Part shown: one piece after another, positions 217 to 50,800 of the stretch
Position numbering within the stretch: position 1 is the first letter of the stretch
Layout: each line of letters opens with the position of its first letter
Origin: a virus
Lineage: Duplodnaviria > Caudoviricetes
Strand: one strand, 5' to 3'
Length of the DNA: 52,717 nucleotides
IMG/VR virus record: IMGVR_UViG_3300035701_000046
Location: 1-52,717 of that record
Program-made: the position numbers and the translations under genes
Notes under the pieces: model-generated
Seen by the model: the letters and a program-made list of their open reading frames with translations, nothing else
The model's database searches: none
What the model was told of the DNA's origin: nothing

Positions 217-1578
217 TCAGACCGGTAATCCGTTATCGTTACTCGCCGATTCCTTCGCTTCCCGCGCCCAACAGTGGATTCGACCGATATCTCCACGGGG
301 ATAAAGAACCATCTGCTCATCCCCGGCTTCTCCGTCGCGATCCTTCGCGAATCCGAGGTTCAGCGTCTTGTCTTCGAAATCTTCCTCTGTCTGAGAGAGA
401 TAGAGAACGGCGGTACACCATTCGGTCGGCGCGCGTCCGTACTTGAAATCGTCCTGAGTGAGGTACTTGTCGAACTTCGTCTTTCCAGCGGCCTGCCCGA
501 ACGCGACGAGAGCGAGACCCTTCTCCTGTTTCCAACTTTTCGCCAGGAGCTGCATGCTCTCGGCGGCGAGCGCGATGTCTTTCCAGTCTAGGGTGGCAGC
601 GATGTCGGTCAACTGATCGATGATGACCAGGTCAGGATCGAATGGGAGCATCAGCAGCTCGGCTTCAATCGCGGCCATCGTGGGCTTTTTAGGGTATGAC
701 CGTACCTCGTATATCCTCTTTGCGTCTTTCCATTCCTCGGTGTCCTTCATGAAGTCTGTGAGCTGCTCCTGAGAGAGAAGCCACGGTTTTCTGAGAAGGA
801 CGTTTGTCGGGATCTCGGAGCGCCGGGCGTAGAAGCGAGCGATATCCTTCTCGGCCCGCATTTCGAGGCTGAATTTCACGACCTTGAAACCGGCAAGCGC
901 CGCCGCGTAGCCGATCTGCGTCCCGAACAGACTCTTGCCGCGTCCCGAGTATCCGAAGAGAAGGTAGTTCTCCCCTCGATACCAGCCCCCACCGAGCCTT
1001 TCGTCGAGCCAGGGGATTCCTGTCGTTATCGCGTTGGTCCCCGTGTCTCCTGCTTCAACCCGCGCGAGCAGAGTACGCAGATAGCTGTCCGCGTCTCGCG
1101 TAATCGGGTCCACACGAACCACCCGGTCACCTTCGGTCGCGAGCCGCTGCACGATCGTCATCATCGAGGTCGAGAACGCGGCGAAATTCTGCCTGTCGAG
1201 ATGTTCGAGACTCTCGCCGATGCCCTGGTGAGCAACGTGGACTTTGTGCTTGATCTTTAGCTGATCCCGGAGGAAGTCGAATCCCTCGGGTTCGGTGGTG
1301 CCGTAAATCTCATCGAGAAGGTTATCCAGTAGACCGATGTCCGTAAGGGCGAGCTTGGGATTGTCCGATTTGATCGATTGGATAAGGATCTCGCGGGAGG
1401 GCGGGATATCGTTGTACGTCTTGAGATAGGTGAAGATTGCTCTGCCGACAATCTTCGTGTAGGGATTCAGAAAGTAATCGAGCTTGAGGCCAGACTCGCG
1501 ACGGCGTAGACGCTCCCGCGTGTCGGGTTGGTGTATGAGACAGGCGAGTACCTTCGCCTCGATCGCCCGTGCATCCAT
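217..1578 (-). CDS. dnaB: DnaB-like replicative helicase
   Basis: 453 aa; 'ITTGIPWLDERLGGG', Walker A GYSGRGKS, FSLEM, Walker B 'LVIIDQL', 'AKDRDG' arginine finger. Confidence 0.92.
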   Translation of the reverse strand: MDARAIEAKVLACLIHQPDTRERLRRRESGLKLDYFLNPYTKIVGRAIFTYLKTYNDIPPSREILIQSIKSDNPKLALTDIGLLDNLLDEIYGTTEPEGFDFLRDQLKIKHKVHVAHQGIGESLEHLDRQNFAAFSTSMMTIVQRLATEGDRVVRVDPITRDADSYLRTLLARVEAGDTGTNAITTGIPWLDERLGGGWYRGENYLLFGYSGRGKSLFGTQIGYAAALAGFKVVKFSLEMRAEKDIARFYARRSEIPTNVLLRKPWLLSQEQLTDFMKDTEEWKDAKRIYEVRSYPKKPTMAAIEAELLMLPFDPDLVIIDQLTDIAATLDWKDIALAAESMQLLAKSWKQEKGLALVAFGQAAGKTKFDKYLTQDDFKYGRAPTEWCTAVLYLSQTEEDFEDKTLNLGFAKDRDGEAGDEQMVLYPRGDIGRIHCWAREAKESASNDNGLPV

Positions 1579-1758: not shown

Positions 1759-2673
1759 CTACTGGTTCGGTTTCTCCGAGACGGTCGCTCCGAGCGGTTT
1801 CCATTTGTTCATGAACCTCAGCTCGCATAGGTAAACCCGCGTGCTATACACGCACCGGGCACAAGGAAACAACGAGGTCTGACTGCCCCCGGTCTTTTCG
1901 AAAGGGAGCCGTTTCATACAGGGAGGCTCCCCGGTCAGAGTAGCCCTGTGGGCAATTACACGGTCAATATCGGCTTTATTCTCTCGGAAATCGGGAGATT
2001 CACGAGTGATCTTCATCGTGGAGAAAGCGAATGCCCTCGAAACGATTGACCATCCGGCTCTCTTGGAGAAGGCGGCATGCCCCATGTTCGTGTTCATCAC
2101 AACACATCGCTTCCGCCGTCCACCGGCAGTGACCCGATCGATCAGATCGAAAAGGTCCTCAGCGTCCCACCATTTCTTCTCGCCCTCAGAGGAGAGATTA
2201 TCGATGATCACCAGCCGGGCTGCGTTGAGCATCTCCAGAAGTTCCACGTAGAGAGCCGGGTTGTGCATGATGAATTTTTTCTTGTCCACCCACTCACGGA
2301 TCGACACACAGAGCGTTGGGATCTTGTGGACTTCAATCGCCTCGCTGGCAATCATGTAACTGAGAAAACTCTTCCCTCGCCCAGACTCACCGATGATCAG
2401 CAAACCGGTTCCCGCGTGGATGTGGAATCGAATCTGTCTCGCGAATTCCATCGCTTTTCTAAGAGGTTCCCGATTAGGGACCTGGTAATCCTCCCACTGG
2501 CTAAACAAGTAGTCGAACGGCACGCCGCTCTTGAAGGCCCGCTCGACAAAATGGAGCGCCTCCCTATCCACCGGCCCGCGCATGACCTGGGGGAAGCTCT
2601 CTTTGAGAATCTCCCGGAGCTGCGTTGGGTAGGACGAGCGCAGATCGAAATCGCGGAGGCTTCTGTCTTGCAT
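1759..2673 (-). CDS. DnaC/IstB-like AAA+ ATPase (helicase loader)
   Basis: 'GLLIIGESGRGKSFLS', Walker B 'LVIIDNL', 'MNTN', 'IVSR'; adjacent to dnaB; start moved to ATG 2673 after GAGGTG. Confidence 0.85.
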   Translation of the reverse strand: MQDRSLRDFDLRSSYPTQLREILKESFPQVMRGPVDREALHFVERAFKSGVPFDYLFSQWEDYQVPNREPLRKAMEFARQIRFHIHAGTGLLIIGESGRGKSFLSYMIASEAIEVHKIPTLCVSIREWVDKKKFIMHNPALYVELLEMLNAARLVIIDNLSSEGEKKWWDAEDLFDLIDRVTAGGRRKRCVVMNTNMGHAAFSKRAGWSIVSRAFAFSTMKITRESPDFRENKADIDRVIAHRATLTGEPPCMKRLPFEKTGGSQTSLFPCARCVYSTRVYLCELRFMNKWKPLGATVSEKPNQ

Positions 2674-2680
2674 GTTCACC

Positions 2681-2866
2681 TCATTCCGGCATCGGCGGAT
2701 CTGATTTGTTCCCGAGAATCCAATCGATTGCCGCGACAACGCCATCCTCGTATGTCCCCATTTCGGGACGTTCCCTTCCCGCTTCGCGGTCATCGATACT
2801 ATCCATCGCCTTCTGCGCCTGGTCGTCGATCTCCGCTTTGGTCCGTTCTGTTATTAAGTTCTCCAT
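2681..2866 (-). CDS. small hypothetical protein
   Basis: 61 aa, AGGA SD, 'TYEDGVVAAIDWILG'. Confidence 0.65.
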   Translation of the reverse strand: MENLITERTKAEIDDQAQKAMDSIDDREAGRERPEMGTYEDGVVAAIDWILGNKSDPPMPE

Positions 2867-2911
2867 TCTTTCCTCACATTCTGTTAGTGGGCCTTTCGAC
2901 GACGCCGGGCT

Positions 2912-3835
2912 TTACTCGTGCTCTGGCGGTTTTATGGCATATTCCTTCTCGACGAATCCGGGCAGACGGCCATGTACCATAGTGTGCCGTACCCAAATCC
3001 GTCGGCCATCCCAGAGCCGACGAATATGACCACGTCTGAAATGAGAACGGAATCCAGGACCAGTGCCTGTCGAAGTATGTGGTGAGTCCCAAACTTCTGA
3101 ATCAACGACTAAAACCTTGTACGAATATAGTGGAGTTCTATCTCTTCGTTTTCTCGCGCGTACCAGCTTTTCAGGGGGGGCTATATCCCTCGTTTTGACG
3201 TTATGAAGTGAGAGCATTACCATGAGGTTCAGTGCCGCGCCGAAATCGGTAAGGTACTCATTAACTACTTTCGCAGGATCCAATCCCCCTGCTCGTAGCT
3301 TTTCCTGCATGCTTGGAGAAAGCGCCGAAGTTGCTTGGAACCCTGGGCCGTGATCAGGAAGGAACATGACTGCCGCTGTCCCCTCTGTCATCCATCTCGG
3401 ATATTCAGACTTGAAATACGATGTACTAAAAACGTAGAAAGCGCGTCCTGGACCGTCTTCTTTGAAACGTTCTTCTACGAATCTTTTCCCGACAGCGCCT
3501 GCGTTTGAAAAGACAAGCGTGATTTTCCATCCTCGGCAGATGATCTTAAATTCTGATCCCGTCTCTGGCGTGTCTTCTCTCAGAAATTCTTCGGTGAGAA
3601 TAATCGTAGGCTCGGCTGGCAGCCTTATCGTTGCCTTCAAATCTTCTGTGATCACATTTGTCTCACCAAGAATCATGGCAGCATCGGGCAAGTAGAAACG
3701 TTGCCCGAATTTCAAACCTCTCGCCAATAACACGAGATTGGTAGCGACACTGGGATCTGAACTGCGATCATTGACACACCGTGTAGCCAATTCTCGGATA
3801 TCTTTCTCGGCTTGTGTGAACTTGGACCAGTGCAT
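2912..3835 (-). CDS. hypothetical phage protein with C-terminal H-x-RRGH-x-R motif
   Basis: 307 aa, GGAG SD, 'RSHFRRGHIRRLWDGRRIWVR'. Confidence 0.8.
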   Translation of the reverse strand: MHWSKFTQAEKDIRELATRCVNDRSSDPSVATNLVLLARGLKFGQRFYLPDAAMILGETNVITEDLKATIRLPAEPTIILTEEFLREDTPETGSEFKIICRGWKITLVFSNAGAVGKRFVEERFKEDGPGRAFYVFSTSYFKSEYPRWMTEGTAAVMFLPDHGPGFQATSALSPSMQEKLRAGGLDPAKVVNEYLTDFGAALNLMVMLSLHNVKTRDIAPPEKLVRARKRRDRTPLYSYKVLVVDSEVWDSPHTSTGTGPGFRSHFRRGHIRRLWDGRRIWVRHTMVHGRLPGFVEKEYAIKPPEHE

Positions 3836-10182: not shown

Positions 10183-10704
10183 TCAATCGGGCCAGGAATC
10201 CGTGCAATCCGTCTCGGGCCGTAAAGGCTTGTCCCACGAGTCTGTCACCGGGGCCTCGGCTTCTCGCGCTCGGGCGAGCGCCTTACAATACTCCGAGGTC
10301 CAGTATTCACTCGCGAGGTCTCCGATGCTCAGGCGGGAAAAATGGTGGGCAAGAAGCCAATCGACGAAGCCGGTCCCGATCTGGATGCGCTCGCGGTAGA
10401 GTGGCCCCCACTCGGCTTCTCGGGAGAATGGCGGCAACTCCCGCCACCTCGCATTGTGCTCCGGGAACATTTCCTGGCGTAGGTGCGCCATCATCCGGTG
10501 GACACGCTCGAAGTATCGAGGGGAACTGATCTGTGGCGCTGAGACCCCGTTCGACTTCTTGAACGCTTTTCGGAAATGCTCTATGATCTCCTGGAGTGCC
10601 CGGCGATCAAGCGTGATCGGATCGAGGGGATTGTCGCCGCGCGGGCGCAGCGGGGGACCTACAACGAAGGAAAGCTCAGGCTCGTGGCAACGCTTTGTCG
10701 TCAT
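10183..10704 (-). CDS. hypothetical protein
   Basis: ~173 aa, AGG SD. Confidence 0.55.
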   Translation of the reverse strand: MTTKRCHEPELSFVVGPPLRPRGDNPLDPITLDRRALQEIIEHFRKAFKKSNGVSAPQISSPRYFERVHRMMAHLRQEMFPEHNARWRELPPFSREAEWGPLYRERIQIGTGFVDWLLAHHFSRLSIGDLASEYWTSEYCKALARAREAEAPVTDSWDKPLRPETDCTDSWPD

Positions 10705-10833
10705 CGTCGGACCTACCTTCAACGGAATGTGGAGCGGAAAGGCGAGACCAACGGATACGCTCCAATTCTACAGAGACCCTGCCTCATGGCAAGGCCGTTT
10801 TCCGCGAGCGGGGGACAAACCTGTGGGAAAAAG

Positions 10834-10842
10834 TTATCCACA
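10834..10842 (+). promoter_or_regulatory. DnaA-box consensus
   Basis: TTATCCACA in a divergent intergenic region. Confidence 0.5.
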
Positions 10843-10904
10843 TTTTTTTTCGAGCCAGGGCAAAAAAGACTTGCGGTATAAGCTAAGTCGGCGTTTATAG
10901 TCTT

Positions 10905-11253
10905 GACTCGTGTGATACCCTGCGACGGGGTGGGCGGGGAATAAGCATGTACAAGCATCTGTGGTAACCCGGTCGAAGACCGACTGCCGGAGTGGAACCT
11001 CTCCAAAACCATCTTTCTACACAAGTTCCAATCCGCCAGGAACCCCCCGAGAACGGTGTGGGGTAGCAGGAAACCCCTACAGCCTCCGCCTTCCGTTCAG
11101 GCACAAGGATCCCTGGCTTGGACAAAACGATACCGATGGCTTGGGAGGGTAAACAAAACGGTATCGCTGGCACCACCCAACCCCACCGAGCGGCTCGCGA
11201 GCCAGCTCGCTCGCGAATCCGAATAGCAGTCGGTCCCCCCGTCAAAGAGAGTC
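10905..11253 (+). ncRNA. candidate large structured ncRNA (~350 nt)
   Basis: nested long-range stems 10924-30/11237-43, 10978-87/11226-35, 11051-56/11093-98, 11128-35/11159-66; no credible ORF. Confidence 0.6.
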
Positions 11254-11299
11254 GCCCCCAAGAGGCCCGGATTCTGTGTCCAGTTGTAAGGAGGTTTCC

Positions 11300-11920
11300 A
11301 TGATAGAAATCATCTGTATTCTTGACCGAAGTGGGTCAATGACGAGGATAAAGAACGATGCGATCGGATCCTTCAACACGTTCCTGACCGAGCAGCAGAA
11401 GGTCCCCGGTGACGCGGTCGTGACGGTGGTGCTTTTCAACGACGAGTACCGGGCGCTCTATGAGCAGAAACCGCTCGCGGAGGTCCCGCTCTTGACCGAA
11501 GAGACGTATCAGACGACTGGGTCCACGGCGCTCCTCCACGCGATCTGCCGGACCCTCGAAGCTCCCGACAAGCCGGAGCGCGGTATCGTCGTGATCCTCA
11601 CGGATGGCGAGGAGAACGCTTCCCCGGTGGAGTACACCAAGGAACGCGCGGCGAAGGCCGTGAAGGCGCTGGAGGACAAGGGCTGGCAGGTCCACTATCT
11701 GGCGGCGAACCAGGATGCGTTCGCGGAAGGGGCGGCCCTCGGGATCACCCATACGTTGAACTATGCCGCGACGCCCGATGGAATCCGGCACGCTTATGCG
11801 GTGGCCGGTCAATCGACGATGTGCTATCGTACCGGATTCCCGCCGCATGTGACGTTGCCCGATGGGACGACGGCGGATCCGATCGCGTTCCAGAGCACGA
11901 CGACCGATGGAAAAGACTGA
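11300..11920 (+). CDS. von Willebrand factor A domain protein
   Basis: MIDAS 'ILDRSGSM', 'GSTAL', 'VILTDGEENAS', 'YLAANQDA'; AAGGAGG SD. Confidence 0.93.
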   Translation: MIEIICILDRSGSMTRIKNDAIGSFNTFLTEQQKVPGDAVVTVVLFNDEYRALYEQKPLAEVPLLTEETYQTTGSTALLHAICRTLEAPDKPERGIVVILTDGEENASPVEYTKERAAKAVKALEDKGWQVHYLAANQDAFAEGAALGITHTLNYAATPDGIRHAYAVAGQSTMCYRTGFPPHVTLPDGTTADPIAFQSTTTDGKD

Positions 11921-12626
11921 CCGGATTCTCACTGGGGATGCCCTGACCGTTCTCGGGACGCTTGATTCGGAGAGCGTCCAATGCTGTGTCACGTCGCCCC
12001 CGTATTGGGGGCTACGTGACTACGGCACGGCGACGTGGGAAGGTGGGGACGCGGCGTGCGACCACAGGGTAGGTGGGCAGGTGCCGGACAACAAAGCTCC
12101 GGGCGCAATAGTAACCGGCCAACGACCGGGCGTTGACGCGAGCGTGTGCCGCAAGTGCGGTGCTTGTCGAATCGACGACCAACTCGGCCTTGAATCCACG
12201 CCGGAGGAGTATGTCGCCCACATGGAGGCGATCAAGGAACCAATGGCCGAGGCGTCTGCGGCAAGGTATGAATACTCGTTCGGCGGGGAAAAGAACATCC
12301 GACTAAAGGCAACAGATAAGCCAACCGCTCTTGTCGGAAACAGAGATGTCACCGATGGCCGTAACCGCCGCTCGGTCTGGACGATCACGACGAAGCCTTA
12401 CAAAGAGGCCCACTTCGCCACGTTCCCCCCGGAAATCCCCAAGCTGTGCATCCTCGCGGCAACGAGGCCGGGCGATGTCGTCCTCGACCCCTTCTTGGGG
12501 AGCGGGACGACGGCTGCGGTTGCCCTGGAATTCGGCAGGCGCTACATCGGGATCGAGCTGAAGGCGGAGTACGTCGAACTCGCGAGGATGCGGTTGAAAC
12601 AGACTAACGTCGGTCTCGGGATTTGA
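11907..12626 (+). pseudogene. beta-class N4/N6 DNA methyltransferase with apparent in-frame internal deletion
   Basis: TSPPY, HFATFP, VLDPFLGSGTT, GIEL present; the core between 'PEEYVAHM' and 'EAIKEP' is missing. Confidence 0.7.
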
Positions 12627-17458: not shown

Positions 17459-17500
17459 AAAACCCGAATTGTAGGTTTATACCAGCCCATAGTATGGAGG
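17459..17500 (+). repeat. 42-bp exact repeat, copy 1 (promoter + RBS cassette)
   Basis: AAAACCCGAATTGTAGGTTTATACCAGCCCATAGTATGGAGG identical to 44341-44382. Confidence 0.9.
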
Positions 17501-17524: not shown

Positions 17525-18349
17525 ATGTCCGAACGTCCGAAGACCCCCGAGCTGTCCATTGTGGATGGCGGCAAGCCAGAGGGACAGGCGGGCCAATCCC
17601 GTCCCGAGGGTTTACCGGGGCAGAAATGCTTGGCGCGGCGTCGTGTTTGCGCATGCACTCACCGCTTCGTCAAGGATGAGCGGATCGTCGATCGTGATCT
17701 ATCTGTGCGTATGCGGCCAGATTACGACCGGCGAAAGCTAGGGGTTTGCCCTAGCTGTGGGCTGGTCCGCGAACTCTGCGGCCAGCCTGCGGTAGAAGGC
17801 CGTTATGTTTGCCGCTTCCACGGCGGTAAAGCAGGCCGGAAGCCGATGGTCCCTGTTATTCACGCTCTCAGGGACGAAGACCGCGATGCTGTCGTCGCTT
17901 CGATCGAAGCGAAGGACGAAAACCTCACCGTCGAATTCCACGTCGTCAAGCACATCCTCGATTCCGTCCTCACCCAGTACGACCCCGAACTCGCTGACCT
18001 AGATTTCGCTGAACGCGCTGTCGCGCTGCTCGATCGTGTTTCTTCGATCGGCGAGCGTCGGGCGCGTCTACGTCTGCTTGTCCCGCCAGACCTAGAGAAG
18101 CTCAAGCTCGACTTCGGGGATCCTCGTGTTTCGCTCGCCATCAAAGAAAAGATGCGAGACAACTACGAGAAGGCTATCCGGGGAACCGTTCAACTGATGA
18201 TCGAAGCGGTGAGGCGGGATCCCAAATTACTCGAAGGCGTTATCAAGCTCCTGCCTGAGCGGCTTCGGAACTACATCGAAGTCGTTTCGGCTCGACCCGC
18301 ACAATTCCAGATCACTCTACCAAATGCCCAAGAAACCCCGGAGCAGTAG
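17525..18349 (+). CDS. terS: putative terminase small subunit (HGG zinc-finger type)
   Basis: 'CGQPAVEGRYVCRFHGG'; directly upstream of and overlapping terL. Confidence 0.65.
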   Translation: MSERPKTPELSIVDGGKPEGQAGQSRPEGLPGQKCLARRRVCACTHRFVKDERIVDRDLSVRMRPDYDRRKLGVCPSCGLVRELCGQPAVEGRYVCRFHGGKAGRKPMVPVIHALRDEDRDAVVASIEAKDENLTVEFHVVKHILDSVLTQYDPELADLDFAERAVALLDRVSSIGERRARLRLLVPPDLEKLKLDFGDPRVSLAIKEKMRDNYEKAIRGTVQLMIEAVRRDPKLLEGVIKLLPERLRNYIEVVSARPAQFQITLPNAQETPEQ

Positions 18350-20450
18350 CCCCGGTAACGGCAAGCCCAAGAAGAATGCCGATATCGACTCGCTACTCGA
18401 CGAGATACAGAATAACGCCCTGCGCGAGCTGTCGTTGCAGCTCCCCGAGGTCCACCAGATCGCGGCCCGATCCGGCGTGGGAAGCCCGGTCTCTGACATC
18501 GCGTGGGTCGAACAACCCGTTACGTTTCACGAGTTTGTAAACGATCCGTGGCACATGGATCAGCCGCCTTTGGGAGATCGGCAGCGCCAGGATATCGAGA
18601 CCTTTCTCGGCGAAGAACCGACGCAGATTTTCTCCCGGCTGGCATCCCATCTCGAAGGGGCCTTCCGCGAGGCGGTGCTTGTGTGGGGAAAGGGGGGCGG
18701 AAAAGACTGGATCTGCACGATGGTTCAGTGCTATCTGGTCTACCTGCTCCTGTGCATCAAGGACCCCCGGCATGTTCTCGGTCTTGCCCCTCACGAAGCG
18801 GTAGACATTCTCAATGTCTCCTATTCGGCGAAACAGGCTAACGAGGTCTATTTCACGAAGTTCCTCCAGCGTATCCTGCACTGGCGCTGGCTCCGGCATA
18901 ACTATCCGATTGAGTTCCAGAGAAAAGTCATCAACCGGGAAGATCACCCTCATGCTCAGCTTCAGCCAGATGGGCAAAATTACGTTCATATTGGGGCTGA
19001 TCAGGTGCGCTTCCCCCACTTGATCCGCGCCATCAGCGAGCACAGTGAGAACGAGAGCTACGAAGGGTACAACATCCTTTTTTGGGTCATGGATGAAGCG
19101 GCAGCCTTCCGTAACGCCGGGAAAAAGGCGAACGCCCACAAGGTCTACTCTACCCTTCGGACCTCGGCGGTAAGCCGGTTCCCGCAGCTATGGCGGGGGA
19201 TGATGATCAGCTACCCCCGGAGTGCCGACGATTTCATCATGACCAAGTACGCCCAAGGCCAGGCGGACTCGGAGTGTTTCACCTCGCTCGCGTACACCTG
19301 GCAGGTAAATCCGACCAAACAAGAGTCCGATTTCGAGAAAGACCGGGAGAAGAACCCGGTCGAGTACGAGGCCAAGTACCGTTGTAATCCGCCCCCGCGT
19401 TTCGGGTCGGCATTCGACCCTCTAAACGTCGATGCCTGCGTGGATTACAGCCGGAAATCCTTGGTGAAGACAAAGCCCGCGATCATTTCCGCACGGGTAG
19501 AGGAACCCGGTACGGGAGTGGTATATCAGAGGCAGTTCGTTGGGAAATCGTTGACTGACGTGAACGTACACGATCTCGGAGAAAAGGCCCGCCCCCGTGT
19601 GTTTCACGTCGATGGCGGCCTGACGAACTGCCCTGCCGGGCTTGTCGTGGCTCATGGGGAACCAGTCATGGTTCAGGGTCAAGTCCTGAACAAAGTCGTG
19701 GTCGATGTCCTCTTGCAGTGGAAACCGCTGCCCTCGAAGCGGCTCCAGGTCTCGCTCAACAACATCGCGGCTTTCATCGAGACGCTTTCGCATCACATCA
19801 CGATCGTCCGGGGGAGTTACGATCAGTGGAACTCTCAGTCGGCTCTGGAAGCCCTTTTCTTGGCGAATATCCCGGTCGAGAAGCACGATATCACGGCGGA
19901 CGACTATGGATGCCTGGAGGGCCTCATTAACCTCGGCTGCATCGCTATTCCAGGGGATGACGAGACTGAGTGGGAGATCATTACCGCCGAGTTGAAGAAT
20001 CTCGTCCGGTACAATGTCGGTAGCAGGATCCGATACGACATCCCGCGCGAAGAGGGGGAGACCACACGGGACGATTGGGGAGGGCCTCGGTACACCAAGG
20101 ACATCGCGGACTGCCTCGCCGGGGTCTCGCGTCTCCTGAACGATCCCCTTATCCGGGCCGATGTCTCCGGGACTCGCGCGCCTGGCCTTATTGCTGGCCC
20201 GAGTATGAGTTCGCAGGGTCGGGGGCAGCCGATCAGCGCCCGGCGGGATCTCGCCAACCGGGGATACCTCCCCGAGAAACTTCCTGCCTCGACGTTCCCG
20301 ACGGAAGCCGGGTTCATGGGGGCGCAGATGAATCAATCGTCGCGAGCCGCGAATCAGCATGTGCTCCTCACGGAGATCGCGGGGAAGATGCGTCTACGTG
20401 GCATCAACGAGCCGACGACCCGTAGACCGCCGAAACCGATTATCAAGTAA
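18324..20450 (+). CDS. terL: terminase large subunit
   Basis: Walker A 'WGKGGGKD', Walker B 'WVMDEAA', 'ISYPR', nuclease 'FHVDGG', 'SYDQWNS', 'KDIADC'. Confidence 0.92.
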   Translation: MPKKPRSSSPGNGKPKKNADIDSLLDEIQNNALRELSLQLPEVHQIAARSGVGSPVSDIAWVEQPVTFHEFVNDPWHMDQPPLGDRQRQDIETFLGEEPTQIFSRLASHLEGAFREAVLVWGKGGGKDWICTMVQCYLVYLLLCIKDPRHVLGLAPHEAVDILNVSYSAKQANEVYFTKFLQRILHWRWLRHNYPIEFQRKVINREDHPHAQLQPDGQNYVHIGADQVRFPHLIRAISEHSENESYEGYNILFWVMDEAAAFRNAGKKANAHKVYSTLRTSAVSRFPQLWRGMMISYPRSADDFIMTKYAQGQADSECFTSLAYTWQVNPTKQESDFEKDREKNPVEYEAKYRCNPPPRFGSAFDPLNVDACVDYSRKSLVKTKPAIISARVEEPGTGVVYQRQFVGKSLTDVNVHDLGEKARPRVFHVDGGLTNCPAGLVVAHGEPVMVQGQVLNKVVVDVLLQWKPLPSKRLQVSLNNIAAFIETLSHHITIVRGSYDQWNSQSALEALFLANIPVEKHDITADDYGCLEGLINLGCIAIPGDDETEWEIITAELKNLVRYNVGSRIRYDIPREEGETTRDDWGGPRYTKDIADCLAGVSRLLNDPLIRADVSGTRAPGLIAGPSMSSQGRGQPISARRDLANRGYLPEKLPASTFPTEAGFMGAQMNQSSRAANQHVLLTEIAGKMRLRGINEPTTRRPPKPIIK

Positions 20451-31585: not shown

Positions 31586-32899
31586 ATGCCAGTGTCGCCG
31601 TATGTTCTGGAGAGGCTTCAGACCTCGCTTTCGCAGGACCAGTTCGAGAAAGTCTTGGCGGCGACGAAGGTCAGTAAAACGCGGCCCAAGATCACGTTTA
31701 TGGTCAGCCCGCAGCTTAACGCCTGCGACTATTATCGGGGCTACATGATCGCTCGCGAGTTGGAGAAGCACGATCTCTTCGATCTCCAGTTTGTCCACGG
31801 AATCGGGCCGAACGAAGCCTATGACTCGAACCTAATGGTCGTGTACCGGCCCAAAGACCCGTCGCTCATGAACTATACGAACAACCCGGCGGCGCAGAAC
31901 GCATACCTCATGGCGGATTACGACGATGATGTTTTCAGCGTCCCTCGGGCGAATTTCCTGGCACCGAATTTCACGCCGCAAGAGAAGAACTTCTCGATGC
32001 AGATTACGTCCCGCGTCACCCAGTTGACCGTCTCCACGCGGCGGCTCCGTGATGTCCTGAAGTCGAATCAGCCACGGGTTTCCGTGATCCCGAACATGGT
32101 GGATTTCGATGCGTATTCGAAACTCTTGATGCACTTCCCGAAAACGCCGAATCCGCGTTTCCGCGTCGGATGGGCCGGGACCTACACGCACACCGAAGAT
32201 TTGATGGGTGGGGGGCAGGTGTTTCTCAGAGCACTCAGCGAGTTTATGCGAAAGCGTAGAGACGTTGAGATGGTGTTCTTCGGGTTCTGCCCGGAGAATT
32301 TCATGAATGAGCACTGGGGACGAGTCGCATCAATCGACCCGGTGCATCTTTACCAGTATATGTCTCGACTGGCGCAGTTGAATCTTGACCTGATGCTGTA
32401 TCCGCTGATGGATCATCAGTTCAACTACTCCAAGTCGAACATTCGCTGGCTAGAATCAAGCATGATCCATGTCCCGGTGATATCCAGCCCGATTCATAGT
32501 TACCGGGATATTGGCGAAGACCTTTGCATGACGGTGCCGTTGACCTATGAGGCTTGGTTCAATGCCCTGGAGCATGCCTATCTCAATCGTGATGATATGC
32601 GCGCTCGGGCAGAGAAATCACGAGAATGGGCGAGAGCACATTGGTCAATCCAGGCTGGATGGCCAGCCTGGGCGGCGGTCCTTGCGGCGGCAGCGACCGG
32701 CGAATTCGTCGCCCAAGATTTTACACCCCCGCCGTATCCTTCAAAGCAGAAGGGGGACAGTCATGCAACTCGATTGGACGTTTCTGATCAACATGGGAGT
32801 GGGCTTCGTCCTGAAGCACACGAAGATCGGGCCGAAAAAGATCACTTTCCCGAACTGGGCGATCCCCATAGCGAACCTCGTGGGGACGTTTGCGTTTGA
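31586..32899 (+). CDS. GT-B fold glycosyltransferase
   Basis: 'CDYYR', 'DYDDD', 'VIPN', 'VGWAG..HTEDL', 'FNYSKSNIRWLE'; GGAGG SD. Confidence 0.88.
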   Translation: MPVSPYVLERLQTSLSQDQFEKVLAATKVSKTRPKITFMVSPQLNACDYYRGYMIARELEKHDLFDLQFVHGIGPNEAYDSNLMVVYRPKDPSLMNYTNNPAAQNAYLMADYDDDVFSVPRANFLAPNFTPQEKNFSMQITSRVTQLTVSTRRLRDVLKSNQPRVSVIPNMVDFDAYSKLLMHFPKTPNPRFRVGWAGTYTHTEDLMGGGQVFLRALSEFMRKRRDVEMVFFGFCPENFMNEHWGRVASIDPVHLYQYMSRLAQLNLDLMLYPLMDHQFNYSKSNIRWLESSMIHVPVISSPIHSYRDIGEDLCMTVPLTYEAWFNALEHAYLNRDDMRARAEKSREWARAHWSIQAGWPAWAAVLAAAATGEFVAQDFTPPPYPSKQKGDSHATRLDVSDQHGSGLRPEAHEDRAEKDHFPELGDPHSEPRGDVCV

Positions 32900-33081: not shown

Positions 33082-35040
33082 ATGAGGACGATTGTCATGG
33101 CAAGTCGTTATGAGATCGTACCGGCGAGTTCTCTCCAAACGAACAAGCTGGACGAAGGTTTCCGCGAACTGACGCGGGGACGCCCGTTCAATCGTGTCAT
33201 CAAGACTTCGGCACAAGGCGGGCAGAGAAGCCTGATGCGGGTCCCAACACAGGGAATGTCGCAGGGGATGCCCCGGTCGTTGCAGAAGTATTCGGCGATG
33301 GCAGGCGGATCGTCGTGGCGGCATACGAGGACCGAGTTCCTGGAGCCGCAGGTCCGCGATCCCTTGCTCTCTGCCAGCAACTTCTATCTGCCGACGGATC
33401 GGGTGATGATGAATGCCTGGATCCGCTACTTCGATCGTTTCCACCCGATTGTCGGGAACGCGATCGACATGCACGCGACGGTGCCGTTCTCGAAGTTCCA
33501 GTTAAAGGACATCGACGACCCTGCCATCCGGCTGTTCTACGAGGACATGACGACCGAGGTCAACCTCTTCCGCCGTATCCTGGAGATCAGCCGCGAGTAC
33601 GAGCTGATCGGCGAAGTCTTCCCGTTTGCGTACTGGGACGACGAGATGAACGCTTTCAGCGAAATCGTCATCCTCAACCCCGATACCGTGGAAGTCATTG
33701 GTATCTACATCGCTGGTGAACGAACCTGGCGCTACGAGCTTGTGCCGGACCCGACCGTTGTGGCTTTCTTGCGGTCGGATAACCCCCTCGATTGGGAGAT
33801 CGTGCAGGAGATCGATCCGGCGATCATCCGGGCCGCACAGACGGATACGAATGCCCCCCTTGACCCGTTCAACCTCTCGCACCTCGCGCGTAAGCAAAGT
33901 CCTTACGATGATCGCGGGGTCAGCATCATCATGGGCTGTCTCAAGGACCTGCTCTACGAGGAGCAGCTTTTGGAAGCTCAGTATGCGATCACCGGGGGTA
34001 TCGTCCGCCCTCGTGAAATCTGGAAGCTCGGTATCCCCGGCGAGTACATGCCGACCGATGAGGACCTCATGGACCTCAGAAATTTGCTCGCCGCTTCCGA
34101 GTTCGACCCCAACTTCGCTCTGATCAGTCACCACGGCCTCACCGTGGAATTCGTCGGCGCAGACCGGCGGATCCTGCCGATCATCCCCGAACGGCAGCAG
34201 ATTGAGGACCGTCTTCTTACCCGCCTCTACACGAACAAGGCCATCACACACGGGGAAGGCCCAACCTACGCGAATGCCTCGGTGGCGATGCAATTTATCG
34301 CTGCGCGATACGCGACGAAACGTGACTACATCACCGAGTGGATTCGAGACAAGGTCTTCCTGCCGACCTCGTTGGCCAATGAGTTCTACCACCCGCTTGC
34401 CCCCCACATGACCTCCGGCCAAGGGCCGTGGATGAGGACCTCGGGGCAACGCGAGCTTGTCATCCCCGATTTCCAGTGGCTTTCCCTCGTCGATCTCACC
34501 GACAAGGGCCAGAAACTTCAGTACGCGATGCAGCTTGCAACGCAGGCGCGTCTGCCGATGAAGACGATCCTCGATCTTCTCCAGATCGATTCGAGCGAGG
34601 TCGAGTTCTGGCTTGAAGAAGAAGAAGGGACCCGACTCGACGCGATTTACCAGTCTACCCGGAAGATGGTCCAGGAAGCCCGAGCGCGGGTTGAGGAAAC
34701 GAAGAAACTCGCTCCCGGCGCTCCGGGTGCTGGTGGACAACAGCCTGGCGGAGCCGGTGGGGAAAAGAACACTCCCGAGGGGATCGCTGATGATCTCCGG
34801 CAGAAGTCTGAGAAGGACGAAAAGGCCCAGGAAAAAGTGCCCCCCCCGGTCAAACCGGCAGCGGAGCAGGCTCAACCGACGGAGCCAAAGACAGAGCCAG
34901 CGGTGCGCCAGGGCGCAGTGGTGTTCGGCCCTTTCGATCTGAAGCCAGGGGAGAACATCTTTGCCGGTGCGGAAACCCTGGAAGGCTCTCTCTTGGACAT
35001 ATTCCGCATGGGGCCGCCCGACAAACCGCCCAAGACCTAG
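33082..35040 (+). CDS. portal protein
   Basis: 652 aa; 'HPIVGNAID', 'IGEVF', 'ILNPD', 'PYDDRGVSI', 'TYANASVA'; disordered C-tail; followed by MuF. Confidence 0.85.
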   Translation: MRTIVMASRYEIVPASSLQTNKLDEGFRELTRGRPFNRVIKTSAQGGQRSLMRVPTQGMSQGMPRSLQKYSAMAGGSSWRHTRTEFLEPQVRDPLLSASNFYLPTDRVMMNAWIRYFDRFHPIVGNAIDMHATVPFSKFQLKDIDDPAIRLFYEDMTTEVNLFRRILEISREYELIGEVFPFAYWDDEMNAFSEIVILNPDTVEVIGIYIAGERTWRYELVPDPTVVAFLRSDNPLDWEIVQEIDPAIIRAAQTDTNAPLDPFNLSHLARKQSPYDDRGVSIIMGCLKDLLYEEQLLEAQYAITGGIVRPREIWKLGIPGEYMPTDEDLMDLRNLLAASEFDPNFALISHHGLTVEFVGADRRILPIIPERQQIEDRLLTRLYTNKAITHGEGPTYANASVAMQFIAARYATKRDYITEWIRDKVFLPTSLANEFYHPLAPHMTSGQGPWMRTSGQRELVIPDFQWLSLVDLTDKGQKLQYAMQLATQARLPMKTILDLLQIDSSEVEFWLEEEEGTRLDAIYQSTRKMVQEARARVEETKKLAPGAPGAGGQQPGGAGGEKNTPEGIADDLRQKSEKDEKAQEKVPPPVKPAAEQAQPTEPKTEPAVRQGAVVFGPFDLKPGENIFAGAETLEGSLLDIFRMGPPDKPPKT

Positions 35041-37355
35041 ATGCCATCTCCCGAGAGAGCTGGCAGAGGCGTCTTTGGTTCACGAACATCGGCAACTCGT
35101 CTCGGAAAGTCATCATCGACCTGGAAAATCGGTTCCTTGACCTCCACGCGGTCAAGGCAGAGGACTTCGTCTCGAACCTGGTGTCGGACTACGAGGCGCG
35201 GGGCAGAATCGATCCTGAAGCGATTTCCAGGGCACTCACCACGCACCTTGAGGGCCTATCCGTCTCCGGGTCCGATTTCCTTCAGAAAAGCCTAGAAAGT
35301 TTACATCATAATTCACTCATCGATGCCCTGAACCGGGCGGGATTCCGGCGCGAGGTCCGCCGGATGTCGAAGCAGGCCCAGACAGCGGGGGAACGCGATG
35401 AGCAGCTCCGGCGTTCGTTCGATATGGCCTTCCGCAGTGTCACGTCGCTGCCGGATGAAATCGTCGAGCGGATCCGGTCCAGGATTCTCAAGAATCTCGA
35501 AGAGGGCCGGGGTAGCACCGAGAAGGTACTCCGGGCGATTATCCAAGAGGAAATCGAGGGCCTCGGGGAGATGGACCCGGTCTCCCTGCGCAAGGCGATT
35601 CGGAAAATCTGGGACGAGACCAAACGAGACCTTCAGCGCGTAATCCGGTCCGAATCGATCAACGCCTACTCGCGGGTGCAACTCAAGGAATGGGCCGATC
35701 GCGGCATCAAGCGTGTCCGCCGGAAGAGCATCGACGATGATCGAACGTGTGCGATCTGCCGCGAGCTTTCTCGTCCGGGGACGAACATCTACGACATCGA
35801 GGCGCTCCTGCGTCTCGACTACCCTGTCAGTCAGGACCCCGACACCGGCGAGTGGATGACGCATCCGAACTGTTTCTTGCCAGGCACGTTAGTCAGAGGG
35901 GATTTTGTGGCTGGAAGCCGGGCCATCTATAATGGCCCTGCTCGGGAGATACGGACGGCGAGGGGTGAATGTCTTCGCGTCACGCCCAATCATCCGATAC
36001 TTACCAAGAAAGGATTCGTCCCCGCGAAGGATCTCGGGCCAGGCGATAATCTCGTTTGCTACAACGCTCCAGAGAACAGGCCCGCTTCCGTTGGCCTGAG
36101 TACAAACAATCAGCAAGAACCAACCCGAATCGAGGATGTATTCCATACGATCCGAGAGATGGCGAAGGCGGCCCATCGCCGCCTTGATATTACTGCCAAG
36201 GATTTCCACGGCGACGCGAGTTTCTTCGTGGGCGAAGTCGAGATTGTATCGCTCAATGGGGAGCTGAGAAACGAATCCCTTTCCTTTGAGCCAGTCACCG
36301 AGGAAGATTTCGTCTTGGGATCGGTTGCTCTGAAGTCGGAAGCGAGTGATCGCACGCTGCCGATAAACGTCGTCGGTGTGGCACCCAGCGATTTGACGTG
36401 CTCGAACTGTGGGCGTCATCTTCGACCACTTCAATCTCTCTGCATCGGACTGCCCACGGAGATCAACGCCTTGTTCCTGGAATCGGTGGGCCAGGGCAAA
36501 GCGTCCAATGCCCGTAATCTTCGAGAGGGTATTGAGAGATTCCCCGGCGTGGTAACGAGTGATCAGGTTGTCGAGATCCTGGATTTCAATTTTTCTGGTG
36601 ATGTTTATGACCTCCAATCTACGTCGGGTTACATTGTAGCACAGACTGTCGTTGCTGGAAATTGCCGCTGTTGGTTCGAACCCTTGATTGACGATGTCTG
36701 GTCGGAGCTTGAGGGGATGGAGGCGCAACTCCTCGCAGATATCACACGGGGTGAAGCTACTGCCCGAGATGTTCCGATCGATTCTCAGAGGACGGTGGAG
36801 AAGGCGCTTCGAGAACACAAGAAGGTTGAGATGGACGTGCGCTTCGTCCCGAGGATTGTTGACCTTCCCGAGTGGCAAGCTGTCCGGCGTGAAGAGTTGG
36901 CCAGCGATGTCGGATCGGAAAAGGCAAAGGTTCTCTTGCAGGGCGAGATTTTCGCAAACGAAGTCGTTGAGTGGACAGACTCCGATACGGGTACCCATTA
37001 TGTCGCTTCCCAGGCTCAAGAAATCGAGCACGTGAGTACGCCGATCGCGCGTGCCGCAGCCGAGAAGCTGTGGGATGGCGGGGTCGTGCCTCATGCTTGG
37101 GTCGCGACTCGATACCGCGAGAAAAAGGCATCTCTCAACGCGACTCTCGAAGTCGAGGGCTACAAAATCTACGGTGGGCAGCCTTTCCCGAACGAAATCG
37201 CTGCGCAGAGTGTCCGCGACTATTTCGTTGAAAGTTATAGTCTTTACGTCGTCCAACCTTATATCCTGGAGACCGCCGACCCCGAGATGTACGAATGGCT
37301 CCGCGTTGAGGTCTTTGGCGGGCGGGAGTTCATGCAAAGGGGTGGGATAAAGTAG
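35010..37355 (+). CDS. MuF/minor head protein with intein and degenerate zincin-like C-terminus; 5' end unresolved (first start codon 35181)
   Basis: 'RVIRSESINAY', 'DDDRTCAIC', 'HPN|intein|CRC'; frame looks protein-like from ~35010. Confidence 0.85.
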   Translation, partial: GAARQTAQDLDAISRESWQRRLWFTNIGNSSRKVIIDLENRFLDLHAVKAEDFVSNLVSDYEARGRIDPEAISRALTTHLEGLSVSGSDFLQKSLESLHHNSLIDALNRAGFRREVRRMSKQAQTAGERDEQLRRSFDMAFRSVTSLPDEIVERIRSRILKNLEEGRGSTEKVLRAIIQEEIEGLGEMDPVSLRKAIRKIWDETKRDLQRVIRSESINAYSRVQLKEWADRGIKRVRRKSIDDDRTCAICRELSRPGTNIYDIEALLRLDYPVSQDPDTGEWMTHPNCFLPGTLVRGDFVAGSRAIYNGPAREIRTARGECLRVTPNHPILTKKGFVPAKDLGPGDNLVCYNAPENRPASVGLSTNNQQEPTRIEDVFHTIREMAKAAHRRLDITAKDFHGDASFFVGEVEIVSLNGELRNESLSFEPVTEEDFVLGSVALKSEASDRTLPINVVGVAPSDLTCSNCGRHLRPLQSLCIGLPTEINALFLESVGQGKASNARNLREGIERFPGVVTSDQVVEILDFNFSGDVYDLQSTSGYIVAQTVVAGNCRCWFEPLIDDVWSELEGMEAQLLADITRGEATARDVPIDSQRTVEKALREHKKVEMDVRFVPRIVDLPEWQAVRREELASDVGSEKAKVLLQGEIFANEVVEWTDSDTGTHYVASQAQEIEHVSTPIARAAAEKLWDGGVVPHAWVATRYREKKASLNATLEVEGYKIYGGQPFPNEIAAQSVRDYFVESYSLYVVQPYILETADPEMYEWLRVEVFGGREFMQRGGIK
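35889..36602 (-). CDS. antisense HTH + Vsr/DUF559-like endonuclease nested in the intein (237 aa, ATC at expected start)
   Basis: HTH 'RYHAGESLNTLSKITGIGRFALAHRFQEQGVDLR'; 'SQDEIFLGDWL..SQLPIERYNLDFA..RVAVEILG..YILDSGWFLLIV'; GGAGG SD at 36615-36611. Confidence 0.8.
   Translation of the reverse strand: MTRKIEIQDLDNLITRYHAGESLNTLSKITGIGRFALAHRFQEQGVDLRGQSDAERLKWSKMTPTVRARQIAGCHTDDVYRQRAITRFRLQSNRSQDEIFLGDWLKGKGFVSQLPIERYNLDFAHEETRVAVEILGSNIKAAMGRLRHLSDRMEYILDSGWFLLIVCTQANGSGPVLWSVVANEIIAWPEILRGDESFLGKYRMIGRDAKTFTPRRPYLPSRAIIDGPASSHKIPSD
36633..36643 (-). promoter_or_regulatory. extended -10 promoter candidate for the antisense nuclease
   Basis: TGTGCTACAAT on the minus strand, ~17 nt upstream of the SD. 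Confidence 0.55.
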
Positions 37356-44292: not shown

Positions 44293-44309
44293 GATAAAAT
44301 TCAATCGAG

Positions 44310-44318
44310 TTATCCACA
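44310..44318 (+). promoter_or_regulatory. DnaA-box consensus
   Basis: TTATCCACA 22 bp upstream of the 42-bp repeat. Confidence 0.5.
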
Positions 44319-44340
44319 GCTTTTTTCGAGAAATGGGCTG

Positions 44341-44382
44341 AAAACCCGAATTGTAGGTTTATACCAGCCCATAGTATGGAGG
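44341..44382 (+). repeat. 42-bp exact repeat, copy 2
   Basis: identical to 17459-17500. Confidence 0.9.
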
Positions 44383-47826: not shown

Positions 47827-50800
47827 ATGCCAAAACGAGACCCGTTCGATCGCCTTCATGCTGGAGCCGATGACTTCCTCGATCAAAACGATATCGATCG
47901 AGAAGTCACCGCTATCCGCCGCTCCCACATCGCCAAACGCTACATCTTCCAGGAGTGGGTCGGCGACAAGATCATGGGCGGCTACGACCCCACCAAAGTC
48001 AAAGACGGCGATGTCGTCGAGACCGTCCCCCACACCCAGCTCGGCCCATCCGTCCCCCGGCCCCCCAAGCACCTCACCTACATCAAGAATTCAGAAACAG
48101 GGGAACTTATCGGACTTATCTCATACGATTCCCTCAAAGAGGCCCGCAAACAATCACACGTCCTGCAACCGAGGAAAACAATCAGGGCCGGTTTGACCCG
48201 CACCGCCCAGGACTACCAGGGCCTCGAAAACCCGGCCCCCCAACTCATCCCCACCGATATCTGGAACAGCGTCGGCCCCCTCGTCGCCCGCATCGGCGAA
48301 CAGAACCGCTGGCTCCGTATCCACGCCAACTCCCTCGAAAAATTCGAGATCATTAACCACGAGATGATGACCTACGCGGCCATGACCACCGCCATGAAGT
48401 TCATCGAGCGCCTGGCTGCCGTCCACATCGAGGTCACCGGCGAGCAGGCCGACGAGGCCGAGCAGCGCCTGCGGAATGCGGGCCTGGCGGTCACCCGGTC
48501 GGCGGTCGGCGGCGAGACCGAGTACGAGCGGTTCGAGGTGGACACGATGGGCCTCGGGTCCGGCGCGGTCGGGAATGCGCTTCGCGGGATCCCGTGGGGG
48601 ATCGTCCGGCAGGCGGCGAGCGACGATTTCCAGACGCTCTACAACGAGTACAACAACAAGGCGTCGGGCATTGTCGGGCCGTATTGGGAAGGTTGGCCGG
48701 AAGACAATAAGATACCGAAGGTTATCGATCTCGCGATGGGGATTTGCGAGGCGGCAGGCGCGGATGAGATGGCGGACCTTCTACGGCAGGATGCGACAGG
48801 AGACGAAGCGGCTCGACAGCAAGGGCACGCGGCTGGCTGGGGACTCGATCCAGCGAAGGGCGCACTTCTCGCGTTTTGCGTGCTGCAAGACGTGAACGCG
48901 CACGAGGTTGCGAAGCCGCTCTTCGATTGGGCGCGAGCGCAGTTCGGGGTTACGGGGGCGAAGCAGGCCCGGCTCCTCCGTCTCGCGCAGGCCGACTACG
49001 ACGAAGTCTACAAGCGTATCGGTCATCTCTACAGCCAGATCGCGACGAAGCACGAGTGGGTAATCGACGAACTGATTTGGGTCGCGATTGGCATGGTCGA
49101 GCAGGCGGGAGTCACCGCACTCGGCAGCCATTTGCGTAATGCGATGCCGGTGATCGATGAGTCTGAGCCGTTCATCGAGGAAGGCAAGAAATACGCGAAG
49201 GGCCGGGAGCCTGTCGAGGCCGTGATGCTTGCATTCGAGACGCTTCAGGACGCGAACGCGCATACTGAGGCGGCTCCCCTGTACGAATGGCTTTTCGAGG
49301 AGGGTGGGTTGACGCGACCGGAGCCGATTCCGCCGATGGAGAGCGCGAAGCGGGTCCGGGGGCAAGATGACGACTTCCAGGACGCGGACAACCGCCCGTG
49401 CGAACACTGCGGCGGGCCGATGCAGTACATGGGTACGCTCGGGAACCGCATGCACTTCCGCTGCCGTGACTGCGGGATGGATGCCAGCGAAGGGATCCCG
49501 GCGGGTGACCGGAGTGCCGAGGGGTTCGAGCCGGAAGCGCGGCGGAAGGTCGCGATGAACGACGTGAACGGCGAGCCGGTGCGCGCGGGTGACCAGGTGC
49601 GGATCGTGAGCGACCAGCGAGGCCAGGAGTCGAGTGAGGGACCGCAATCCGTATCGGGCCAAGGCAAAGAGGGCCGGGTGGTCCGGGTGGACCAGGGCGA
49701 TTCGGGCGGCGTGCCCTTCGCCGTCGTGGACATCGGCACTTACGAAAGCATCAAGGCGACGAAGGTCGAGAAGATCGGCGGCGTCACGAAGGTTGCTCGG
49801 GAAGGCCAGTGCGCACAGTGCGGTTACCAGGGCGAGCCGATGGAGGACGGGACGTGTCCGGGGTGTGGCGCGAGCGATTGGGAATGGGGCGAGCAGCCGG
49901 AGTTCGCGCCGGAGAAGGATTGGGCCGGGCAAGAGGTAGGCCCGCAGTTCGAGTGGCACGGCAAGGACCGCATGCTCATGAACCCGAAGCGCGCGAGCAA
50001 GTATGAGGGCGTCCAGAATCCGAAGCCCGACTTTATCCCCGACGCGGCGTGGGGGCAAGTGGCGGACATCGCGGTGCGGGTTGCCGAGGAGTCCGGGATC
50101 ATGACTTACGACCCGGCGACTGGCGAGTGGCAGATCACCGACCAGGGCGCGTGGGAGTATGCCGCGATGCAGACCGCGCTCAAGTTCATGGAGGGCTTGC
50201 AGAAAGGCAAGAAGACGGCGCAGGACGATGACCCGCTGGCCCGGTTCGAGGCGGAGTTCCGCCCGGCGGCGGAGCAGTGGGCTTTGCAGTTTGGCGTGGG
50301 CGTCCAGGACATCGTCTTCGGGCACGGCGGAGCGAACGTTGTCCTCACGGGGACGATCGACGATCAGGCCGGTGCCCGCGATGCGGCGCGGCAGGCGTTC
50401 TCCGCGTTTGACTGGATGGCGGTCGAATTCCTTGGGCCGCTGAATGGGGCCGACCAATTCGATACGCTTGTTCTCAACTCGACGAACATCGCGCGCCGGA
50501 AGATGGCCAGCGGTGTATCGGGCCGCGAAGATGCCGTGATCCGTTGGCTTTGGAAGCAGGGTTTCGAAATCGACTACCCTGGCTTGCAGCCGGACGGGAA
50601 TGTGATGCTTTTCTCGCCTTACCATATCGGTACGGGCGATCCCGCAACGTCTGAAGAGTTACAGGACCTCGCGGGCCGGATCGAGTCTGAGGTTCCGGGT
50701 GTCCATGACATGTTCAGCGATTCCGTGCAAGGCACACTTTCTGTCGATATCTCGGACCCGAAAGAAGCCCGGAAGCTCGCGAGCAGGCGCAAGCGCGCGG

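Follow-up and report, generated by a model that had tools for sequence, protein, structure and literature searches.

Nested inverted repeats clustered in the one large non-coding gap of an uncultivated sediment phage, and their possible reading as a structured leader RNA

GOLLD and ROOL (both known from phages or prophages), OLE, raiA and HEARO, which we take to be included in Rfam, are multi-branched RNAs of hundreds of nucleotides with obscure functions. Large ornate or orphan RNA families such as GOLLD and ROOL are reported to have been defined by covariation over many genomes (10.1101/2024.12.08.627333; PMC2864571). The element described here resembles these RNAs in size, branching, phage setting and obscurity of function; however, it is smaller, has no relatives and has no match in Rfam 15. 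A second comparison is offered by structured cis-regulatory 5' leaders, be they of the riboswitch type, protein-binding or Rho-dependent attenuators. Like them, the element lies downstream of a likely promoter and ahead of an operon's first gene and forms a self-contained domain with a long closing stem, A-rich unpaired linkers and competing alternative pairings within one arm. In contrast to them, it matches no riboswitch or leader family of Rfam, carries no recognisable expression platform (terminator, antiterminator or sequestration of the Shine-Dalgarno sequence, SD) and, at ~320 nt, exceeds most aptamer domains, and it is a single sequence, not a family. With tmRNA it has in common the overall size and a closing stem that unites the 5' and 3' ends, but no T-arm, CCA end or tag reading frame is visible. 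Primer transcripts of the ColE1 RNA II type and the non-coding origins of Lactococcus Ceduovirus (c2-type) phages are a further comparison. Ceduovirus origins are described as an ORF-free intergenic region between divergent modules that supports plasmid replication (PMC7150918). The likeness consists of a several-hundred-bp ORF-free divergence region, adjoining promoters and extensive dyad symmetry (PMC7150918), whereas in our phage a DnaA-box-like motif is dispersed over four sites and there is no similarity to GenBank phage records.

The window, by which we mean the whole stretch of DNA that was analysed, is an IMG/VR virus record that is linear, 52,717 nt long and estimated to be 41% complete; judged by family matches (Table 1), its source is a tailed phage. 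Up to position 10707 the family-matched long ORFs all lie on the minus strand, the DnaB-like and DnaC-like genes included; the ATG of the first leftward gene was placed at 10707 by reading the sequence, with GAAGG ahead of it. The rightward operon begins with a gene for a 206-aa protein that has VWA-type domains only, besides a weak sub-threshold match to Toprim_3. In the DNA between these operons, no frame over 10760-11300 came out positive in a codon log-likelihood scan for which ten of the phage's long ORFs (most of them family-matched) served as the training set. In hundredths of a bit per codon, the scores were +11 to +26 for the left gene and +46 to +63 for the vWA gene. One ORF of 116 aa runs through the region on the minus strand (10895-11245), but we rejected a coding reading of it: the translation is junk-like and rich in R, G, P and W, the codon score is negative, and there are zero Pfam or PHROG matches. 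The structured element occupies the sole large non-coding gap of this sediment phage. Elsewhere in the window an ORF of at least 1630 aa (47827-52716, plus strand) runs off the 3' end of the record. As a clue to the host the DnaB-like protein gave nothing, its relatives being viral clusters only.

Table 1. Features of the gap, of the element within it and of genes used for orientation (positions in the window)
Feature	Position	Strand	Remarks
DnaB-like gene	217-1578	-	PHROG/Pfam family matches
DnaC-like gene	1759-2793	-	PHROG/Pfam family matches
First gene of leftward operon	10707 to 10183	-	
Non-coding gap between leftward operon and rightward vWA gene	10708-11299		592 nt; ORF map and codon scan
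Sigma-70-like promoter TTGCCA-16-TAGAAT, aimed at leftward operon	10765-10792	-	consensus match alone
DnaA-box-like pair (inverted), left copy TTTCCCACA	10821-10829	-	
DnaA-box-like pair (inverted), right copy TTATCCACA	10834-10842	+	perfect; followed by T8
37-column module	10832-10867	+	30/37 columns identical to 44308-44344
Putative rightward promoter TTGCGG-19 nt-TATAGT	10871-10901	+	sequence reading
P1, 5' arm GACGGGG	10924-10930		pairs with CCCCGTC 11237-11243; mean pair probability 0.99 on both strands
Weakly structured 46-nt arm	10931-10976		one-sided insert between P1 and P2; helix probabilities 0.46-0.90
P2, 5' arm GACCGACTGC	10978-10987		perfect 10 bp with GCAGTCGGTC 11226-11235
Arm Hd	10989-11034		minus strand: hairpin of 3+8+1+5 bp; plus strand: GGAG/CUCC alone
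Arm Hc	11035-11117		outer helix GCCAGG 11035-11040 / CCTGGC 11112-11117 with CCAA/TTGG on the flanks; inner helix GAACGG 11051-11056 / CCGTTC 11093-11098; apical hairpin
Arm Hb	11128-11190		8-bp hairpin CGATACCG 11128-11135 / CGGTATCG 11159-11166
Arm Ha	11191-11221		GC-rich palindrome cluster
P2, 3' arm	11226-11235		
P1, 3' arm	11237-11243		
Shine-Dalgarno GGAGG	11290-11294	+	5 nt ahead of vWA ATG; unsequestered by element
vWA-domain gene	11300-11920	+	206 aa; phrog_7371; VWA and VWA_CoxE (Pfam/PHROG)
DNA methylase, next gene after vWA	11862-12626	+	
Terminase large subunit	18324-20450		family matches
Portal	33082-35040		family matches
Head protein	35181-37355		family matches

All helices that the original prediction had named are present in the sequence, exactly where it placed them or at most 1 nt away, and so is the TATAGT at 10896-10901. 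The fold is self-contained, P1 and P2 joining its two ends, and it lies between the likely promoter module and the SD. Plus-strand pair probabilities are 0.90-0.99 in P1 and P2, in the helices GCCAGG/CCUGGC and GAACGG/CCGUUC, and in the Ha hairpin; on the minus strand the basal helix of Hc is lengthened to 12 bp through three G-U pairs. The A-rich linkers are seen in the sequence as two copies of ACAAAACG and one of CCAAAACC. The 8-bp hairpin CGATACCG/CGGTATCG of Hb is contained in neither strand's MFE fold, and its two arms likewise make up a direct repeat of 19 nt, whose copies lie 31 nt from each other and are each near-palindromic. In the same arm TTGGG (11141-11145) can pair with CCCAA (11176-11180), in competition with the 8-bp hairpin. 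This pairing had been put forward as one of two pseudoknots, a proposal that found no support; the two are complementarities of only 3 bp and 5 bp. At Ha, GCTCGCGA occurs three times within 24 nt, which accounts for three of its nine copies in the window. Reading the sequence by eye, we saw no GNRA loop, T-loop or receptor motif.

To the left of the element the sequence contains modules that recur in the phage. The alignment of the 37-column module with its sister at 44308-44344 scores 37, compared with 14.2 +/- 2.0 in shuffles, and 0 of 500 shuffles reach 37; the sister sits just upstream of an ORF starting at 44384. A DnaA-box-like motif, TTWTCCACAG, is found at six sites, 1689 (-), 10821 (-), 10834 (+), 17390 (-), 17433 (-) and 44310 (+). 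These fall between long ORFs, ahead of the left operon, the DnaB-like gene and the ORFs at 17525 and 44384, and the motif is probably the site of a shared regulator. Allowing up to one mismatch, TTATCCACA has 11 matches against 5.8 expected, a number attained in 2 of 100 shuffles. A direct repeat of 42 nt, exact and with GGAGG at its end, is present at 17459-17500 and 44341-44382. At 44.3 kb it follows directly after the module and ends at 44382, the listed GTG start being at 44384, and at 17.4 kb it ends ~25 nt ahead of the ATG at 17525. This repeat is likely to be a shared promoter or leader of the 17525 and 44384 ORFs. At the element locus, compared with 44.3 kb, ~390 nt separate the module from the start codon, and most of this is the structured element. 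A sigma-70 scan found zero plus-strand promoters across the gap, hence none between the element and the vWA gene; it made no call at TTGCGG/TATAGT because the 19-nt spacing there exceeds its range of 16-18.

Such an arrangement might also be that of a DNA-level element, namely a replication origin and/or operator at the divergence of the operons, with the repeats as protein-binding sites and a transcript that serves replication and not as a folded RNA. We regard this as a serious rival, although on balance an improbable one. The perfect DnaA box, its inverted near-copy and the T8 tract at 10821-10851 fit an origin, as do a cumulative GC-skew minimum at ~10-12 kb, the DnaB- and DnaC-like genes of the leftward operon, the near-palindromic 19-nt copies of Hb with their spacing of 31 bp (~3 helical turns) and the three clustered copies of GCTCGCGA among the nine of the window. 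In addition, the gap is similar to the origin of Lactococcus Ceduovirus phages, which lacks ORFs and separates divergent modules (PMC7150918). The DnaA-box-like motif, however, is found at three other places in the window, which is more like a transcription-factor site; the iteron-like copies number two only, with none further in the gap; and the GC skew also tracks the direction of transcription and is hence ambiguous. All in all, the DnaA-origin features of the gap are one perfect box, one near-box, T8, an A-run and two iteron-like repeats, and no long AT-rich unwinding region is present. Protein sites also leave the nested pairings over distances of 238-313 nt unexplained. A possible operator motif, AAAACGRTAYCG, was dismissed, being unrepeated in the gap; the only other exact match to its 12-nt core lies inside the long ORF 47827-52716.

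The same inverted repeats might bound a DNA segment that moves or flips, i.e. an inverton switch or a MITE-like insertion between promoter and gene. Inverted repeats of 10+7 bp indeed bracket 238-313 bp directly upstream of a gene and, relative to the sister module at 44308, the element looks as if it had been inserted between promoter module and start codon. However, the subset of ORFs compared with Pfam and PHROGs includes no member of a transposase, integrase or invertase family, the window holds no second copy, and no target-site duplication was seen on reading the flanks. A low-depth contig from run X5 (10903-11298) covers the two arms of the repeat, oriented as in the reference, and no strand-change joint was reported. 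We consider a mobile or invertible segment very improbable.

As to the strength of the fold, the plus strand has an MFE of -129.3 kcal/mol (z -2.43), with 2 of 100 dinucleotide shuffles as stable, and the minus strand one of -156 kcal/mol (z -3.83), with none of 100 as stable. Repeating the calculation on 10920-11247 gave z values of -2.71 (2 of 120 shuffles) and -3.65 (0 of 120), respectively, and ensemble diversity was lower in only 13 (plus) and 6 (minus) of the 120 shuffles. Dinucleotide shuffles had been named in the original prediction as the comparison that could overturn it, and the fold beats them on both strands. When 263 windows of 350 nt, taken across the genome and folded as either strand, serve as background and composition is regressed out, the candidate scores -1.94 (plus) and -2.72 (minus); this is the third most extreme value and does not make it an outlier. 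The two stronger windows, at 32206 and 17606, are both within long ORFs, one of them glycosyltransferase-like. After the same regression 32206-32555 (+) and 17606-17955 (+) have z values of -3.42 and -3.33. The signal at the element is local: shifted by 100 nt, the windows starting at 10806 and 11006 give only -0.26/-0.38 and -0.56/-1.5. Counting perfect inverted repeats that reach 10 bp or more and span up to 420 nt, the window has 23 against 22.1 expected from 40 Markov simulations, and the 10-bp P2 helix alone is at chance level. A 10-bp helix with a coaxial 7-bp extension occurs a single time in the window, and simulations yield 0.375 per genome. This is more than chance, though moderately so; the nested inverted-repeat cluster in the non-coding gap is real and locally unusual.

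The eight sediment-metagenome runs listed as containing the stretch are all of DNA, with no RNA run among them, and one of the eight may be where the window itself came from. They offer a view of its variation, for which we used low-depth DNA contigs from four of them. One contig from run X6, at depth 3, has five listed changes in the region. Two of these, 11107 G>A and 11111 C>T, are both in Hc: on the minus strand they keep pairing (G-C to G-U and G-U to A-U), and on the plus strand one weak pair is broken and one pair gained. A 3-nt change at 11140-11142 disrupts the TTGGG/CCCAA or the CUUGG/CCGAG helix in every model. These variants are too few and too shallow to carry much weight.

A sceptical reading would hold that no fold has been selected at all, the gap being promoter and spacer DNA and the nested repeats the chance tail of a sequence of 59% G+C, picked out by a helix-seeking reader. 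The count of 10-bp repeats close to expectation agrees with this, as does the expected 0.375 coaxial 10+7 helices per genome-sized random sequence, the more unusual folding of two windows within long ORFs, the 3-5 bp of the pseudoknots, the failure of every search made to find conservation and the X6 change that disrupts a helix of Hb in all models. What this reading does not account for is that shuffles are beaten on both strands (2/100 and 0/100; 2/120 and 0/120), that the signal fades in the windows at 10806 and 11006, and that ~390 non-coding nt between promoter module and gene call for an explanation, while at the sister module the 42-nt repeat ends just before GTG 44384. We hold it to be unlikely, but it deserves more weight than the origin.

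If there is a functional RNA, it might also be read from the other strand, as a stand-alone or antisense leftward RNA from ~11250 to 10920 with a five-way junction and a 24-bp closing stem. The minus-strand fold is the more exceptional one (z -3.83/-3.65; background z -2.72 vs -1.94 for the plus strand), with G-U pairs that lengthen helices where the plus strand has A-C mismatches; it comprises 92 Watson-Crick and 18 G-U pairs, with Hc lengthened from 6 bp to 12. Both X6 changes at 11107 and 11111 keep Hc pairing, and 11141 stays paired. Yet shuffles rich in G+U already gain G-U pairs, the difference in z is ~1 SD, and the variant support comes from one contig at depth 3 in which the change at 11142 breaks a minus-strand pair. 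Nor does the composition help: with U at 34% of the unpaired bases and A at only 15% of the RNA, it would be atypical. The minus strand has no promoter-like site or DnaA-box module right of the element, and the hairpins before T-runs at 10862-10868 are weak (z ~0). A leftward RNA thus appears rather improbable.

Comparison with known families gave no identity for the element. Rfam 15 (4227 models, which include riboswitches, ribozymes, RNase P, group I introns and large ornate RNAs) has zero matches at gathering scores in the whole window of 52,717 nt, and at E<=10 the region 10600-11500 yields SNORD109A alone, inside the vWA gene and at 17.4 bits compared with a gathering score of 35. ARAGORN found zero tRNAs and zero tmRNAs in the whole window on both strands. 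The description of the element as unclassified therefore stands, since there is neither an Rfam family match nor an ARAGORN tRNA or tmRNA; the likeness to tmRNA that had been pointed out finds no support, as neither program reports a tmRNA match. A module of Y RNA and Rsr (Ro60) is not indicated either: the neighbouring 206-aa protein has no TROVE family, and there is no Rfam Y-RNA match.

Relatives were sought by sequence and by structure. We gathered 123 loci that encode vWA relatives (5 viral, 80 metagenomic and 38 genomic), and positions 10723-11300 have no similarity to any of them (nhmmer E<=1, blastn E<=0.1). A covariance model, R1, was built from the minus-strand MFE between 11236 and 10977 (260 nt, 92 pairs). 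In the window and the 123 loci it matched only itself, and nothing credible came from 15 pattern-matched loci or from 5 genomes plus 4x151 genomes of the phyla of four vWA-bearing MAGs. Two of its matches were judged to be chance: one of 15.9 bits (L126) with most of the model deleted, and one of 23 bits to a 49-nt hairpin inside a 219-aa ORF (G503/L140), whose E-value of 0.001 per genome is one result in ~600 genomes searched. In distant mode blastn gave no match in 50,697 GenBank phage records or 72,556 PLSDB plasmid records. Four DNA pattern scans returned zero or unrelated loci; the nine matches of an 18-mer pattern were set aside as an SD-plus-spacer region in AT-rich phages with dissimilar flanks. 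The pattern of the promoter module and that of the 42-nt repeat each hit 0 stretches in viral_contigs, and for the left gene, the portal and the SNF2 helicase no relatives were detected in IMG/VR viral contigs. A homologue, which the original prediction had proposed to look for, was thus found neither in the loci nor in the phages, plasmids or ~600 sampled genomes, and by the searches made the element is an orphan.

The element had also been described as lying upstream of a vWA gene. Its position is indeed there, but the link is unconserved, as none of the 123 vWA loci is alike in sequence or fold. In L007, whose vWA protein is the closest relative (73% aa identity), ORFs are packed tightly right up to the gene and leave no gap. 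By tblastx this locus, 5.5 kb of a 52.8-kb metagenome contig, shares with the window the vWA gene only (its positions 2501-3070 vs 11300-11920), which suggests that the gene moves between unrelated phages as a mobile cassette to which the element is not tied. An RNA family linked to vWA genes was also considered and rejected: the upstream gaps of L003 (z +0.59) and L005 (z -0.25) fold no better than shuffles. The gap of L006 is weakly better than shuffles (z -1.97). In L005 we noted a motif of ~27 nt, AACCCGGCACCCGCTTTCCGATTGGGT, that occurs twice (~2540-2570 and ~2820-2850) and brackets a stretch about as long as a short ORF, ahead of that phage's vWA gene. Many of the 38 vWA relatives on genome contigs (L087-L124) are in MAGs of Planctomycetota (Planctomycetaceae, Pirellulaceae and Kuenenia), and this says nothing firm about the host of our phage. 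A further outcome is that the link of the element to vWA genes is not conserved across these loci.

Considering all this, it is plausible that the element is a structured RNA. In favour of calling it a structured phage RNA, as was done originally, is that it beats shuffles; the designation is weakened by its third place among 263 genome windows, the failure to find a homologue and the ambiguity of the strand. Our preferred, though tentative, interpretation is that of a structured 5' leader, transcribed rightward as part of the vWA-methylase operon. A rightward RNA is favoured over a leftward one by a small margin, because the promoter-associated module lies just left of the element and because 46% of the unpaired plus-strand bases are A, with 10% G. 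Unpaired positions that are A-rich and G-poor are the usual make-up of natural structured RNAs; the plus strand of the element as a whole is U-poor (A 25%, U 15%). Against a leader speak the better fold of the minus strand (z -3.83, -3.65), the chance level of the 10-bp helix taken alone, the 19-nt spacer of the putative promoter that the scan did not call, the breaking of plus-strand pairs by three of the five changes in the low-depth X6 contig, and the lack of any terminator, antiterminator or SD-sequestering structure that would tie the domain to expression.

As a rightward leader, the element would be a self-contained multi-helix RNA domain (~10924-11243) within an untranslated leader of ~390 nt, whose transcription may start at a promoter inside the DnaA-box-like module (~10832-10901). 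P1 and P2 would together form an interrupted closing stem of 17 bp that unites the ends of the domain and encloses three or four arms with A-rich linkers between them. The folded leader might then act in cis on its own operon. This could be done, for example, by binding a factor or by switching between the competing pairings of Hb, or alternatively by keeping Rho or RNases off an untranslated leader that is long and C-rich. It would not act through hiding the ribosome-binding site. Candidate intrinsic terminators, i.e. the hairpins before T8 (plus strand, 10822-10851) and before the minus-strand T-run (10889-10862), are weak (z ~0), and at either end of the element there is no terminator-like hairpin of any strength. 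Sequestration of the SD by the element was likewise rejected: in the ensemble the SD does not pair with the element but is partly paired with nucleotides close by (11279-11281 and 11308-11317). Given that there is neither a terminator hairpin nor SD-element pairing, translational occlusion and classic attenuation are not indicated.

It is even conceivable, though we think it improbable, that the element would be the founding member of a new class of large phage RNAs (~320 nt) that fold autonomously around a multi-way junction. In a deep-branching lineage of sediment phages without sequenced relatives, it would then control the early vWA-methylase operon, for instance as a ribozyme or as a leader that senses a ligand or a protein. 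With one sequence and a moderate thermodynamic signal, its main value at present is that R1 can serve as a seed model for larger metagenome collections. Should the fold prove functional, the element would add a new structured leader RNA from a phage lineage that has no relatives detectable by these searches, and orphans of this sort may be a hiding place for new riboswitch or ribozyme classes.
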